Below, piece by piece: positions 1 to 5,177 of a stretch of DNA of 64,000 bases (position 1 is the first letter of the stretch; each line of letters starts with the position of its first letter). The position numbers were made by a program, and so were the translations under genes. The stretch is from an uncultured delta proteobacterium (lineage in GTDB: Bacteria; Desulfobacterota; Binatia; UBA9968), in the NCBI GenBank assembly GCA_963840855.1, contig CAWJBB010000041.1, forward strand, positions 224,001 to 288,000, given 5' to 3'. The notes under the pieces were generated by a model. That model saw nothing but the letters and a program-made list of their open reading frames with translations, searched no databases and had not been told where the DNA came from.

Positions 1-1
1 T

Positions 2-175
2 GTCCGCAAAGCCATCAAGGCGAAACCTGAACCCCGGCTAGTTGCCACCGTCGGTAAATACACCCTCGAGCGCACCATCAAGCGCGAACTTACCGGCTAT
101 CTCATCACCAAAAAGGCTCTGGATAATTACCAGGTCTCAGAGCGCCACCTTTACGCTGGAAAAAAAACTGAATAA
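2..175 (+). CDS. 3' end of a small basic hypothetical protein (partial)
   Basis: Open frame VRKAIKAKPEPRLVATVGKYTLERTIKRELTGYLITKKALDNYQVSERHLYAGKKTE ending in TAA at 173-175; start lies outside the window. Confidence 0.5.
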   Translation, partial: VRKAIKAKPEPRLVATVGKYTLERTIKRELTGYLITKKALDNYQVSERHLYAGKKTE

Positions 176-259
176 CGGTTGAGTTTGCACTACAAACCAA
201 CGGTTGACACTGCAACGCGAACCGTAGTAAACTTCTAGGCATTCCAAAGGGGGTGCCTA

Positions 260-2266
260 ATGATTTCAACCTGCCAGCGTTTAATCGATGAGACGGACCG
301 CTTGATAGCCGCCAACGCCGCGGCGATAGCGGCACTCAGGAAACTATGGTCCGCAACTATCATCGGGATCCTGCTTCTTTTCGTATCGTCCGCACACGCC
401 CAGCAATCCATTGTCACTGCCGAGTATGCCCGCGGCAATCAGCAAATCACATACATTCTTGACGAGGATGTTTTCCAACCGGGCGATTTCGTCGTCGTGG
501 GAATCTGGCGCTGGGTAAACAACGCGCCCGTTTTTGGCATGTGGTTATCGTCCGAGTGGGCGCAGCCCGGCACTAGCCATTATACTTTTGCAGCATTGAG
601 CGGGGAGAACAGCAACGTCCTCATGTCCGTTGAGACCTGGAACGGCGATCAACGTAAAGACATGGCGTGGTTCTGGGTAATGCAGCCGAACAATAGGGGC
701 GATCTGAATTTTGCAAAAGGACGGGAGCGGATCGAGAATGGCTCGTATTTGAGCATTCAATTGCTCGGAATGAACTATGTCACTCACCCGGGCGAGATCA
801 TGGGGAAGTTGGTGGGCATCACCTATCTCCAAAACGCCAGCGGCTGCTATCCATCCCTATGGATTGACGACGATAAAGTAGCGCAAGGAGCAACAGTGCC
901 ATGCGGGTCGAATCAAAACCTGGTTGTTTTTACTGCAAGCCAAACAGGCAGACAACGAGAAGATCGGCGCAACATCGTGGCATCTGGCCACCACGGTTTG
1001 GTGCTCCGCATGTTACCAACGACTCCTGGCGTGGCGCGGTTTATAAAAGGCAAAAGAGACTGGTGGGAGAGGCACTACGGCACCAGCAACAGTGAAGTGT
1101 CGAAGCGGTATATTCTTGCTCTAGTAGGATATCTCTATTATTCGGCCAAGGGCGAAGCCGAGTTAAATATAGCGGCTAGAACCGGAGGATCTTACCGGAC
1201 CTGGCTGTCCTCGGCGCTGGTAAGCAATCCCAATCCAAGCACGACGTTCATGGACGTCCGAAGTCCTGGCATTTCAGGGGGGAATGGCGATTTCTGGAAT
1301 GCTTCGGGCTGGGTTAGTTCACGATTAGAATCGTCGGTCATTTCAGACACTATGGGAACCGATGCCGTATCAACCGTACGCCTGCTTGAAGCGGCGAAGA
1401 AAAAGAATGAGCCGATCTATCAGATCGATCCCTTCGGATCGATTCCTACCGCCAATCTTGTCTCCGGTGGCTGGCAACAAGGCGAGCTTGTTTTGCTGCA
1501 CCAATGGGTAAACGCGGGATGGTCAGCCATGGTTCCCGCCAGAGTTCAACAAATAGGGAGCTGGCGCGGGATCGGGATGTATATTTACGATATCCCCTCG
1601 GGCTACGGAGCCGCAATCATCAGCGGCAACTTAGGCTCACGAACAGGCAAGAAACCCATCGTGATTCGGGGAGGGTTTAAGGCCAGCACCTCGCCGTTGA
1701 CTGCCGCTCTATTCGAGCCGGGGCTCAATGCAATGGACGTGGGGGACTTCAATTACTTCGGAGGTTGGGCAGATGGCTATATCCAGGAGGCTGCGGCGAG
1801 CTTTCGTGATCTTTCCATGGACATTGAAACGGGGGTTCAAATTGCCGTTGGCCCGCTTGTTGTCGGGCTGGTACGAGGAATACTCCTTGTGGCACCGGAA
1901 GCCCCCGCGGCGCTGGCTTACATAGCATCGCGAGGTTGGTTTCAGCAGGGATACCTTAGCTTTTCGACGTTCAAGCGGATATTAGGAACGGTTCCTCAAA
2001 CACAGTGGCATCATATCGTGCGCCAATATCCCGACAACATTGTTAGATTCGGTTACGAGCAAATCCATCACCCGATGAATTTGATACGCTTGCCAGACTC
2101 TGTTCATTCGGCGATAACTACTTTTTACCGCCATCCACGGCCGGAATTAACCGGAACGGCGGAAGTGCTCAACACTTGGATCTTGAAACAGTCCTATCAG
2201 GTGCAATATGAAATCGGGATAAGGGTTTTGCAGTTGCAGGGCGTCACGAATCTCCCAAGGCCATAA
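260..2266 (+). CDS. Secreted polymorphic-toxin-like protein with C-terminal HNH/EndoVII-type nuclease
   Basis: Signal-peptide-like TIIGILLLFVSSAHA. Central AVSTVRLL..PIYQI..W.GIG..D..SG.GA.IISG segment resembles the conserved pre-toxin region of Rhs/transglutaminase-type toxins. C-terminal WHHIV..IHHPMNLIRL...H motif. Confidence 0.7.
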   Translation: MISTCQRLIDETDRLIAANAAAIAALRKLWSATIIGILLLFVSSAHAQQSIVTAEYARGNQQITYILDEDVFQPGDFVVVGIWRWVNNAPVFGMWLSSEWAQPGTSHYTFAALSGENSNVLMSVETWNGDQRKDMAWFWVMQPNNRGDLNFAKGRERIENGSYLSIQLLGMNYVTHPGEIMGKLVGITYLQNASGCYPSLWIDDDKVAQGATVPCGSNQNLVVFTASQTGRQREDRRNIVASGHHGLVLRMLPTTPGVARFIKGKRDWWERHYGTSNSEVSKRYILALVGYLYYSAKGEAELNIAARTGGSYRTWLSSALVSNPNPSTTFMDVRSPGISGGNGDFWNASGWVSSRLESSVISDTMGTDAVSTVRLLEAAKKKNEPIYQIDPFGSIPTANLVSGGWQQGELVLLHQWVNAGWSAMVPARVQQIGSWRGIGMYIYDIPSGYGAAIISGNLGSRTGKKPIVIRGGFKASTSPLTAALFEPGLNAMDVGDFNYFGGWADGYIQEAAASFRDLSMDIETGVQIAVGPLVVGLVRGILLVAPEAPAALAYIASRGWFQQGYLSFSTFKRILGTVPQTQWHHIVRQYPDNIVRFGYEQIHHPMNLIRLPDSVHSAITTFYRHPRPELTGTAEVLNTWILKQSYQVQYEIGIRVLQLQGVTNLPRP

Positions 2267-2280
2267 AAAGGAGGACACAA

Positions 2281-2583
2281 ATGAAAAAGTTATCTGAAAA
2301 GCAAGAGCAAGAACGAGAGATGAAGCTAGGCTTAAAACGACAAGCGTGGATGCTCAAAGACGCTGCTCAGGTTCAAGCAAAAACGGACAAGGGAATTGCT
2401 GATGCCGTAGAGCGGCTCAAAGAGAAATCCGAGTCTGAGATCAGGGAAGTCTACAACGAAGCATCTAGCGAATATGCGCAATGGCATATTAAAGACCCAG
2501 TGAAGGCTCAACCGGCGATGCACATCATATTCGCCTGCAAAACGATTCTAGGAGATAAACTAGAAGTGAAGTGGCCATCATAG
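2281..2583 (+). CDS. Putative immunity protein (100 aa)
   Basis: Starts 14 bp after the toxin stop, with a strong RBS (AAGGAGG). Function inferred from position only. Confidence 0.55.
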   Translation: MKKLSEKQEQEREMKLGLKRQAWMLKDAAQVQAKTDKGIADAVERLKEKSESEIREVYNEASSEYAQWHIKDPVKAQPAMHIIFACKTILGDKLEVKWPS

Positions 2584-4443: not shown

Positions 4444-4628
4444 TTCCAGACTCCTTTGTGGTTACCAGCGAGCCGGTGAAGGGAGTCTGGTTTTAACGAT
4501 GTTTCATGCTCGAGCGGGGCCTTACGGGAGCGCTCGGGCGATTTTTCTTGCTGATCTATTTCTCTTTCCAGCGCGACGTCGATCGCGTGTATGTGGCGCC
4601 GGATCTCTTTGATGGTTTCCAGTTTCAT
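4440..4628 (-). CDS. Small hypothetical protein (62 aa), coupled to the capsid gene
   Basis: MKLETIKEIRRH...; its stop overlaps the capsid ATG (ATGA). Confidence 0.5.
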   Translation of the reverse strand: MKLETIKEIRRHIHAIDVALEREIDQQEKSPERSRKAPLEHETSLKPDSLHRLAGNHKGVWK

Positions 4629-4629
4629 C

Positions 4630-4968
4630 TCAATGAATAGTCTCGGCGTGCTCTGGCGCGCGCCGTTTGATTTCCTCATCGCACAACGCCAGAATCGCCG
4701 TGCATACCGCAACCGTCTTGAAATACCGCTGGACTTCTTTGCATTCCGCGATTCCGTACATGATGCCGGCGAGGACTTTGATTTCCTTGTCATTCACGTC
4801 CTGATATTTAAGCGGCTGTATCTCCGGCCCGACTTCTCCGGCTTGTCTCGCCGCCCATTCCTGACTCAAGCCAATGAATAACTGACGCGCCAATGGATTG
4901 CCGTCGAATGCCGGATGCCTCACTGCGCTTAACAAGAGTTCGAGCCCTTCGATTTCAATGTCGAGCAT
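4630..4968 (-). CDS. Hypothetical protein (112 aa)
   Basis: MLDIEIEGLELL... with a purine-rich RBS; first gene of the minus-strand operon leading to the capsid gene. Confidence 0.6.
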   Translation of the reverse strand: MLDIEIEGLELLLSAVRHPAFDGNPLARQLFIGLSQEWAARQAGEVGPEIQPLKYQDVNDKEIKVLAGIMYGIAECKEVQRYFKTVAVCTAILALCDEEIKRRAPEHAETIH

Positions 4969-5115
4969 GGGCCTTTTCCCTTTCCTCGCTTGTACAGGTT
5001 CTGTCCAGGTTCGATAGCCAACTATAACCAAAAACAAACAAGTGAGAGAGTATGAAAGAGCGATGTTTACTGTTGGAAAATGGCGGTGGTGTGCTATAGA
5101 TTGAGTGTTCGCAGA

Positions 5116-5177
5116 ACTGGAAATCATGTGTACCCCTAATAAGGGTACCGGGGGTTCGAATCCCCCCCTCTCCGCCA
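5116..5177 (+). tRNA. 3' half of tRNA-Ser(GGA), attR-type remnant (not an intact tRNA)
   Basis: Anticodon loop CTGGAAA, long variable arm, T-arm GGGGGTTCGAATCCCCC and acceptor CTCTCCGCCA are present. The 5' anticodon stem, D-arm and 5' acceptor strand are absent. Confidence 0.9.

Follow-up and report, generated by a model that had tools for sequence, protein, structure and literature searches.

Satellites that carry a homologue of a phage capsid gene are already known, namely SaPIbov5, PmCI172, EcCICFT073, and the tycheposons, and a new candidate is best examined against these. The candidate considered here lies in a stretch of 64,000 nucleotides (nt) from an uncultured delta proteobacterium of the Binatia (GenBank assembly GCA_963840855.1, contig CAWJBB010000041.1, positions 224,001 to 288,000 of the forward strand), which is referred to in full as the window. 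Positions 1-5177 of the window hold a displaced 3' fragment of a tRNA-Ser(GGA) gene and, on the minus strand, a short operon with an HK97-type major capsid gene. We hold, with moderate confidence, that this segment is the right-hand end of an island integrated at tRNA-Ser(GGA), and that the island is a helper-dependent satellite with a capsid gene of its own.

In SaPIbov5, the capsid homologue Ccm occupies the pentamers of small T=4 procapsids, according to an excerpt of PMC8569155. SaPIbov5 resembles the island in the window in having a capsid homologue without portal, protease, large terminase, or tail genes (for the window, within the 5.1 kb in view). The two differ in host phylum, and in SaPIbov5 the integrase, replication genes, regulator, and helper are known. 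The likeness between Ccm and the window capsid is one of analogy and shared fold class, and not of sequence comparison.

Among the phage-inducible chromosomal islands (PICIs) of Gram-negative bacteria, PmCI172 and EcCICFT073 carry capsid homologues among their morphogenesis genes, and PmCI172 makes small capsids (excerpt of PMC6092414). Both are integrase-bearing islands in which, by the same excerpt and the CFT073 annotation, the capsid homologue lies near the end distal to the attachment (att) site and is followed by small open reading frames (ORFs). EcCICFT073 encodes a capsid protein of the lambda E type (c1499; PF03864, E 5e-51) and a decoration protein of the lambda D type (c1500), and deletion of c1499 did not relieve its interference with lambda, as given in the excerpted part of PMC6092414. 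The window capsid belongs to PF05065, and homology to the EcCICFT073 capsid was rejected (BLASTP E 2.2). The criteria for PICIs used here combine the feature list in the excerpt of PMC6092414 with the core genes of SatelliteFinder (excerpt of PMC10085698). They ask for a site-specific integrase at one end, a primase or helicase together with an origin, direct att repeats at either end, a size near one third of that of a phage genome with no lysis or tail genes, and a helper phage that induces, packages, and transfers the island. In contrast to the Gram-negative PICIs, no AlpA, primase, or integrase is seen in the window. The PICI-like tycheposons of Prochlorococcus belong to another host group and are defined by a hallmark set of integrase and replication genes of their own, and their mechanism, too, is a proposal.

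Two further groups help to place the island. Capsid-forming PICIs (cf-PICIs) make their own heads and take only the missing parts from the helper, as is proposed here, and they carry a full head and packaging module with portal, protease, capsid, connector, and terminase genes. None of these genes adjoins the window capsid, which is the sole head gene seen in the window, and a portal gene occurs in just one of 49 related loci. P4, the PICMIs (minimalist phage-inducible islands of the chromosome), and the marine virion-encapsidated integrative mobile elements (VEIMEs) share with the window island that they are small, often integrated at tRNA genes, and helper-dependent. The Sid protein of P4 is an external scaffold, and Psu also has a role. 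P4 redirects capsid size with Sid (excerpt of PMC6092414); in the excerpts of PMC10803314 and PMC9618062, PICMIs are described as encoding no capsid-remodelling genes and marine VEIMEs as encoding no major capsid genes. SatelliteFinder counts a capsid-morphogenesis gene among the core components of PICIs and reports thousands of incomplete 'Type C' hits, according to an excerpt of PMC10085698. A keyword search of the literature, which is not proof of absence, found no published description of an island family that combines an integrase, a primase, and a PF05065 capsid.

The tRNA fragment (Table 1) spans the anticodon loop CTGGAAA, the long variable arm, the T arm, and CCA. When it is aligned with the tRNA-Ser(gga) gene of a related locus, L013, 46 of the 61 columns are identical and the stem of the variable arm is preserved through changes on both sides, whereas just 18 of the 34 columns 5' of the fragment are identical and no cloverleaf is formed. 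ARAGORN found no intact tRNA gene in the whole window. Immediately to the right lie a signal recognition particle (SRP) RNA (5272-5370, 73.5 bits in Rfam) and ORFs that, by eye from their translations, read as dnaX, ybaB, and recR. In other bacteria, this neighbourhood sits after a tRNA-Ser gene. The fragment is therefore what was once the 3' end of a tRNA gene, displaced when an element integrated there, and with the capsid operon beside it this is the classic junction of a tRNA-integrated element. The window contains the fragment just once (its local score against itself is 134, and the best elsewhere is 26), so the island is at least 5.1 kb long and runs past the window start.

The fragment is also picked up by Rfam, in antisense. 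An E-value scan at a relaxed threshold gave a match to RF04351 at 5120-5174 on the minus strand (E 1.8e-7; 44 bits, below the family gathering score of 68). RF04351 is the plastid psbI-rps4 3'UTR RNA family, its consensus here resembles the complement of a tRNA 3' half, and the model seems to capture antisense tRNA sequence.

Reading inward from the att junction on the minus strand, one meets orfA, orfB, and the capsid gene. The stop codon of orfA is separated by one base from the start of orfB (TGA-G-ATG) and the stop of orfB overlaps the capsid start (ATGA), so that the three genes are predicted to be translationally coupled as one operon. The capsid protein matches PF05065 at E 9e-36 (124 bits against a cut-off of 24.2, over positions 1-279 of the 280 in the profile), TIGR01554 at E 2e-45 (155 bits, cut-off 27.5, model positions 3-384 of 385), and phrog_10 at E 2e-48, and the ORF is intact and of full length. 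Its AlphaFold model, built with 38 sequences, has a mean predicted local distance difference test score (pLDDT) of 85 and shows helices at residues 3-25 and 33-73, a disordered stretch at 73-95, and then an HK97-type body. A Foldseek search with the model returned 381 matches in the PDB at E ≤ 0.001, the strongest being to the capsids of the phages R4C, D3, and HK97 and of the RcGTA particle (the Rhodobacter gene transfer agent), with E about 1e-13 and target-normalised TM-scores of 0.6-0.7 for the leading matches. HK97-type phages have a helical N-terminal delta (scaffolding) domain that is removed by the prohead protease, as in HK97 gp5, and in the model the N-terminal helical domain of the window capsid looks like such a domain.

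The first gene of the operon, orfA, has an identical 112-amino-acid (aa) call in the protein database (P0121) and five metagenome homologues at 52-78% identity; a longer ORF that reaches into the tRNA fragment is an artefact. It matches no family in Pfam, PHROGs, NCBIfam, or PADLOC and nothing usable in the protein atlas, and its AlphaFold model of four helices was not used because a pLDDT of 56 is too low. The possibility that orfA is the counterpart of a 121-aa ORF in a related locus, L001, was rejected (hhalign probability 1.6%). For orfB no family was matched, and no enzyme family was found for either small protein.

Apart from the capsid, the ORFs of positions 1-5178 gave noise-level family matches at most: at E ≤ 0.1, scans with Pfam, PHROGs, NCBIfam, and PADLOC found no portal, protease, terminase, tail, or lysis family there. 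Hidden Markov models (HMMs) of the proteins that flank the capsid in related loci (a small-terminase-like cluster from six loci, a three-member and a two-member downstream family, and a six-member upstream family) were also run against 1-5400 translated in six frames, and nothing scored better than E 0.2; a small terminase or conserved flanking gene in the window was rejected on this ground. The structural claims of an earlier, sequence-only reading of this DNA therefore hold: it had described an att end in tRNA-Ser(GGA), two small ORFs followed by an HK97 capsid gene on the minus strand, and no portal, protease, terminase, or tail gene beside it.

What such a lone capsid gene means is best judged from its relatives. 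The protein database held 566 capsid relatives at E ≤ 1e-10 among the candidates scored. Among the best 120 listed, those that cover the whole protein share 42-76% identity with it, and 25 are protease-capsid fusions that match the capsid body only. No close sequenced phage was found, the 205 phage records that match all being below 60% identity with none covering 80% of the protein (26-30% identity among the 15 listed). Nor did the plasmid collection hold a closer relative (73 records, all below 60%, and 24-29% identity among the 12 listed). A search of the genome collection with 38 aligned full-length relatives yielded 49 loci, none of them from the window's own genome. For the seven that match over the full length, 144 ORFs of at least 70 aa were scanned across the whole loci, and for the other 42, 253 ORFs of at least 130 aa in the interval from -5.5 to +2.5 kb around the capsid.

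In 28 of the 49 loci, the capsid has as its neighbour a tyrosine integrase, a primase or replicative helicase (families Prim-Pol, PriCT, DUF5906/D5_N, DUF3987, AAA_25, and Toprim), or both; the remaining 21 are mostly short contigs or capsid fragments. No large terminase was found near the capsid in any of the 49. The single portal gene (L002) lies behind a protease-capsid fusion, a prohead-type protease occurs in three loci (L002, L003, and L045), and a small-terminase-like gene occurs in nine, as judged from Pfam Terminase_4 together with a BLAST cluster, where two of four Pfam matches fall short of the cut-off. In 33 loci, tRNA genes flank the islands and were tested for repeats. Fifteen of these have the tRNA 3' end again, over 31-60 nt, at a distance of 5.0-10.6 kb (median 9.0 kb); six further loci with shorter repeats, of 14-17 nt, were left out of this count. 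The integrase context and the repeat-bounded sizes indicate that the related elements are discrete, uniform, and mobilised by integrases, and that they are far too small to be phages.

Most complete relatives run from the displaced fragment through integrase, replication genes, and capsid, in some cases with a small-terminase-like gene next, to the intact tRNA. In the window, a mere 674 nt separate the fragment from the start of the capsid gene, and integrase and replication genes are missing from their usual place. Several relatives share this layout in part. L046 (165-5246), the smallest member seen, is a complete element of 5.0 kb bounded by a 49-nt tRNA-Arg repeat, with the order fragment, capsid, two small ORFs, integrase, and tRNA-Arg and with the same polarity as the window. 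L001, whose capsid is 59% identical to that of the window, has a tRNA 3' fragment with a CAT anticodon, three small ORFs (one with a weak match to a head-completion protein, E 2.7e-4), the capsid gene, and a HigB toxin gene; its tRNA fragment was shown by alignment with tRNA-Met genes and was missed by the Rfam scan. In L018 and L036, the integrase lies downstream of the capsid. Given the polarity of L046 and L001 and the gene order of L018 and L036, a capsid gene at the junction is a recurring variant and not necessarily the product of a deletion.

As a separate observation on L001, the nearest relative for which DNA is available, the N-terminal helical part of its capsid (1153-1431) is out of frame with the body (1425-2390), which is a frameshift or an assembly error.

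The mobile island, in which the capsid gene is the one virus-building gene in view, most probably lives at the expense of a helper phage. On this proposal, the island would excise and replicate when the helper grows, using genes upstream of the window; the intact tRNA, attL, integrase, and replication gene would all lie before the window start. The satellite capsid would build heads of a size that suits a genome of about 5-11 kb, or co-assemble into them with helper protein, on the helper portal, and its N-terminal scaffold-like domain would be removed by the helper protease. The helper terminase would package the island DNA, at a site possibly in the non-coding region beyond the capsid gene, and the helper tail would then attach. 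The operon orfA-orfB-capsid would start at the att junction and end in a hairpin terminator, and the convergent toxin-like operon would be cargo.

The sequence-only reading had proposed a satellite that supplies only its capsid protein and a packaging site. This interpretation is supported in part. The satellite part gains from a lone capsid gene in 5.1 kb at a tRNA junction and from the integrase or replication context of 28 of 49 relatives; the 'only' is weakened by the nine loci with a small-terminase-like gene, a counterpart of which could lie beyond the window start, and by a non-coding region that nothing marks as a cos or pac site.

Several observations weigh against a functional satellite and should be kept in mind. 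The att evidence for the island consists of a single junction, and its mobility and autonomy hinge on what lies beyond the window. Neither 1-5177 nor the 64 kb as a whole shows an integrase, an excisionase, a regulator, a primase or helicase, or a small terminase, and when 20 integrases and 21 replication proteins taken from related loci were searched with phmmer against the 64-kb window in six frames, none matched at E ≤ 0.01. The window holds no helper prophage, and its remainder is ordinary chromosome. The small ORFs around the window capsid have no detectable homologues in related loci (in tblastn against the 49 loci, nothing fell below E 0.006, and that single match lies inside a capsid gene). 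The assembly of the capsid protein, and any partner in it, is itself a proposal. Finally, remnants exist in the family: L043 (9608-11608) looks like a decayed member, with a 215-aa capsid fragment between two tRNA-Arg(ccg) genes that lie 1.9 kb from each other and have a 54-nt repeat in common, and L047-L049 hold capsid fragments.

The capsid phylogeny adds to these points. The tree comprised 86 capsid proteins (the window capsid, 38 locus proteins, 14 of the 25 fusions, and 25 full-length and eight other database proteins) and was built by an IQ-TREE quick search under LG+G4; 11 loci without a capsid ORF of usable length and the remaining listed database hits were left out. The window capsid groups with P0002 inside a clade of 22 rows (support 97) that consists of metagenome proteins and for which L001 alone provides genomic context. 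The sister of this clade is made up of protease-capsid fusions, one of which (L002) adjoins a portal, and the loci with satellite context are more distant from the window capsid (35-51% identity). A capsid phylogeny had been suggested as a check in the sequence-only reading. The relatives at large are mostly in tRNA-bounded islands; the window's own clade has a single locus for context and a phage-like sister.

Some of these observations would suit an inactive remnant of a satellite or small prophage, which has lost its integrase, replication, and packaging genes and in which the toxin-like operon is a later insertion or a tandem island at the same tRNA. Neither the 5.1 kb nor the window holds an integrase, replication, or small-terminase gene, most complete relatives keep integrase and replication genes where the window has its short gap between fragment and capsid, decayed members are known, and downstream of the capsid come some 390 nt without coding sequence and an ORF that is itself doubtful. 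We nevertheless regard a remnant as unlikely, though it is the rival to be taken most seriously. The capsid ORF runs end to end against TIGR01554 and gives a confident model, the translational coupling of the three genes has been kept, and orfA is conserved in five other metagenome proteins. Moreover, the order of fragment, small ORFs, and capsid recurs in L001, and L046, complete at 5.0 kb, makes a deletion unnecessary.

The sister clade and the portal gene of L002 could be taken to indicate a rearranged or unusual prophage, the other head and tail genes of which lie upstream of the window start, and the full length of an island of at least 5.1 kb is beyond view. This is distinctly improbable. 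The att junction lies 0.7 kb upstream of the capsid, which is followed on its downstream side by a terminator, non-coding DNA, and an operon of non-phage genes that converges on it; the capsid has no neighbouring gene for a protease, portal, or connector, and in none of the 49 related loci is there a large terminase nearby. A solitary HK97-fold gene that is co-transcribed with two small ones, with Rhodobacter gene transfer agent capsids among its best PDB matches, might also be thought a domesticated protein that forms an encapsulin-like compartment or a gene-transfer-agent-like particle and is no part of a mobile element. We find this least credible of all, and very improbable: PF05065 and TIGR01554, both of them families of phage capsids, match the protein from end to end, and no encapsulin family came up in the Pfam and NCBIfam scans, no enzyme family is adjacent, the N-terminal helical domain is of phage type, and the gene transfer agent matches are no better than those to ordinary phages. 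The tRNA att junction, and relatives in integrase-bearing, repeat-bounded islands, likewise argue for a mobile element.

If the window island is a helper-dependent satellite, it adds an environmental, probably uncultured host to the bacteria with capsid-carrying satellites. The gain for the window itself is modest, as the decisive half of the island is out of view, and the related set is of wider interest as a compact and strikingly uniform group whose members combine a capsid gene with an integrase and a primase or helicase, and in some cases with a small-terminase-like gene as well. More tentatively, and with rather less than even confidence, one may see in the window island and about 28 related loci a single widespread, unnamed family of minimal satellites of 5-11 kb at tRNA genes, with a self-scaffolding HK97 capsid that would build the whole head shell and take portal, protease, terminase motor, and tail from the helper. 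Members of such a family would be spread over Pseudomonadota, Acidobacteriota, Bacillota, Binatota, and further phyla, and its capsid clade would be unrepresented among sequenced phages (listed matches at no more than 30% identity). The family would represent a halfway state between PICIs that remodel capsids and those that form them, and would raise the mechanistic question of how a foreign capsid with its own scaffold domain works with the portal and protease of another phage. In the window subclade, where the operon lies at the att junction, the capsid operon would sit directly downstream of the far island end after circularisation. Current satellite finders may score elements of this kind as incomplete.

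Table 1. Features of positions 1-5177 of the window, from the att junction inward
Feature	Positions	Strand	Remarks
Displaced tRNA-Ser(GGA) 3' fragment, 61 nt	5117..5177	+	Right-hand att junction of the island
Leader between att junction and orfA	4969..5116	-	11-nt tandem pair at 4991-5012; Shine-Dalgarno-like run before orfA
orfA, 112 aa, conserved hypothetical	4630..4968	-	First gene of the capsid operon
orfB, 62 aa	4440..4628	-	From ORF list and sequence
HK97-type major capsid protein, 426 aa	3163..4443	-	PF05065, phrog_10, TIGR01554
Terminator-like hairpin after capsid stop	3128..3160	-	8-bp G+C-rich stem, then CUUUUAU
Non-coding region after capsid operon, ~390 nt	2740..3127	-	24-nt motif present twice
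Small basic ORF, 41 aa, doubtful	2614..2739	-	Shine-Dalgarno-like GGGAGG before ATG
Terminator-like hairpin after 100-aa ORF	2626..2646	+	
100-aa ORF, candidate immunity protein	2281..2583	+	14 nt after the toxin-like gene
668-aa protein, toxin-like	260..2266	+	Signal-peptide-like N-terminus; polymorphic-toxin-type C-terminal domain (~residues 550-660)
Truncated ORF, last 57 codons	2..175	+	Start lies before the window

The left half of 1-5177 is taken up by a plus-strand operon that converges on the capsid operon and is missing from the sequence-only reading. Its main gene encodes a 668-aa protein for which no full-length homologue was found besides itself, no match in Pfam, PADLOC, or NCBIfam, and no PDB sequence match with the whole protein or its last 131 aa; the protein atlas gave scores of at most 0.80, which are leads only. 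The last ~100 residues, on the other hand, recur in 977 representative proteins or clusters (exhaustive HMMER, E ≤ 0.001). All 149 listed matches cover query residues ~490-666 and lie at or near the C-termini of their own proteins, whose lengths range from 101 to 2411 aa among the 150 listed, and RHS repeats are present in seven of the 12 scanned proteins that share the domain. A C-terminal domain common to proteins of very different lengths, including RHS-type ones, is the signature of a polymorphic toxin, and conserved W-H-H and H-H residues can be read in it by eye. The 100-aa ORF that follows matches no family in Pfam, PHROGs, NCBIfam, or PADLOC and is a putative immunity protein from gene order and position. 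To judge from these predicted proteins, the two are probably a polymorphic toxin/immunity pair carried as cargo. The uncharacterised toxin-like domain, with its 977 clusters, is a separate lead for interbacterial competition.

The truncated ORF at the window start has just a weak PHROG match to a family without assigned function (E 0.017) and no phmmer similarity to the integrases or replication proteins of related loci. Between it and the 668-aa ORF, a 25-nt unit occurs in tandem (174-223, 72% identity), which may be an operator or promoter element.

Related islands also carry toxin-antitoxin or abortive-infection genes beside the capsid, at the capsid-side island end. These are HigB, Abi_2, zeta toxin, SocA/Panacea, and MqsR/MqsA genes (L001:3577-3828, L003:11718-12647, L008:11791-12504, L011:11605-12117, and L030:12738-13740), and they may be cargo or defence modules. 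In three other islands of about 9-10 kb that lack other tail genes, a protein of 607-894 aa whose domains are of the tape-measure or minor-tail kind (TMP_2, TMP_3, and PhageMin_Tail) directly follows the capsid (L005:11365-13584, L020:3311-5995, and L031:11332-13155).

The region between the two operons had been called repeat-rich in the sequence-only reading. It is indeed non-coding, but the description is overstated, a single 24-nt motif in two copies (2927-2950 and 2763-2786, minus strand, 164 nt apart) being the one significant repeat. The motif matches twice and in none of 100 shuffles, its local alignment score is 36 against a shuffle maximum of 27, and each copy precedes a short hairpin of differing sequence. 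The fold of the whole region is stronger than that of its shuffles (z = -3.1). None of the 50 related loci fetched contains the motif, and a role of the pair as packaging site or promoter pair is conjecture. The copies were also considered as old att scars (T-arm-like plus C-run) and rejected: they score 23 against the tRNA fragment, where the 99th percentile of local scores is 21 and an unrelated site at 60.5 kb scores 26. The small basic ORF of the sequence-only reading is present with its GGGAGG, yet is doubtful because it overlaps the plus-strand terminator-like hairpin and matches no family in Pfam, PHROGs, NCBIfam, or PADLOC.

As regards control elements, the hairpin after the capsid stop comes from an RNA fold of 2739-3162 on the minus strand and is unlisted by a terminator consensus scan. 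The leader upstream of orfA presumably contains a promoter or operator. Its 11-nt tandem pattern has three matches in the window, and the evidence is weak as 6 of 100 shuffles reach that number; no sigma-70 consensus promoter was found in 2200-5300.

Some genes elsewhere in the window also deserve the attention of the annotator. On the minus strand at 23500-26500, the phosphate-transport genes pstS, pstC, and pstA appear to be broken into ORFs in different frames: pstS is split in two (26447-26115 and 26069-25398), and pstC/pstA fall into five or more parts. The neighbouring pstB, phoU, phoB, and phoR are intact and most other window genes are whole, which points to local pseudogenes or local assembly errors. 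Two adjacent overlapping ORFs on the plus strand (26841-27575 and 27533-28234) are both dTMP kinase-like, at 76 bits each against a cut-off of 83. A PhoR-like histidine kinase (18989-21220, minus strand) ends in an ArsC domain of the arsenate-reductase, thioredoxin type (residues 606-733, E 1.6e-46), and a separate ArsC-like ORF (29773-30213) lies beside an exopolyphosphatase gene. Matches to genes of selenoneine biosynthesis lie above the cut-off (SenB 397 bits, SenA 494 bits; 36460-38880 on the minus strand and 41234-42037 on the plus strand), with a shorter SenA/EgtB-like ORF nearby.

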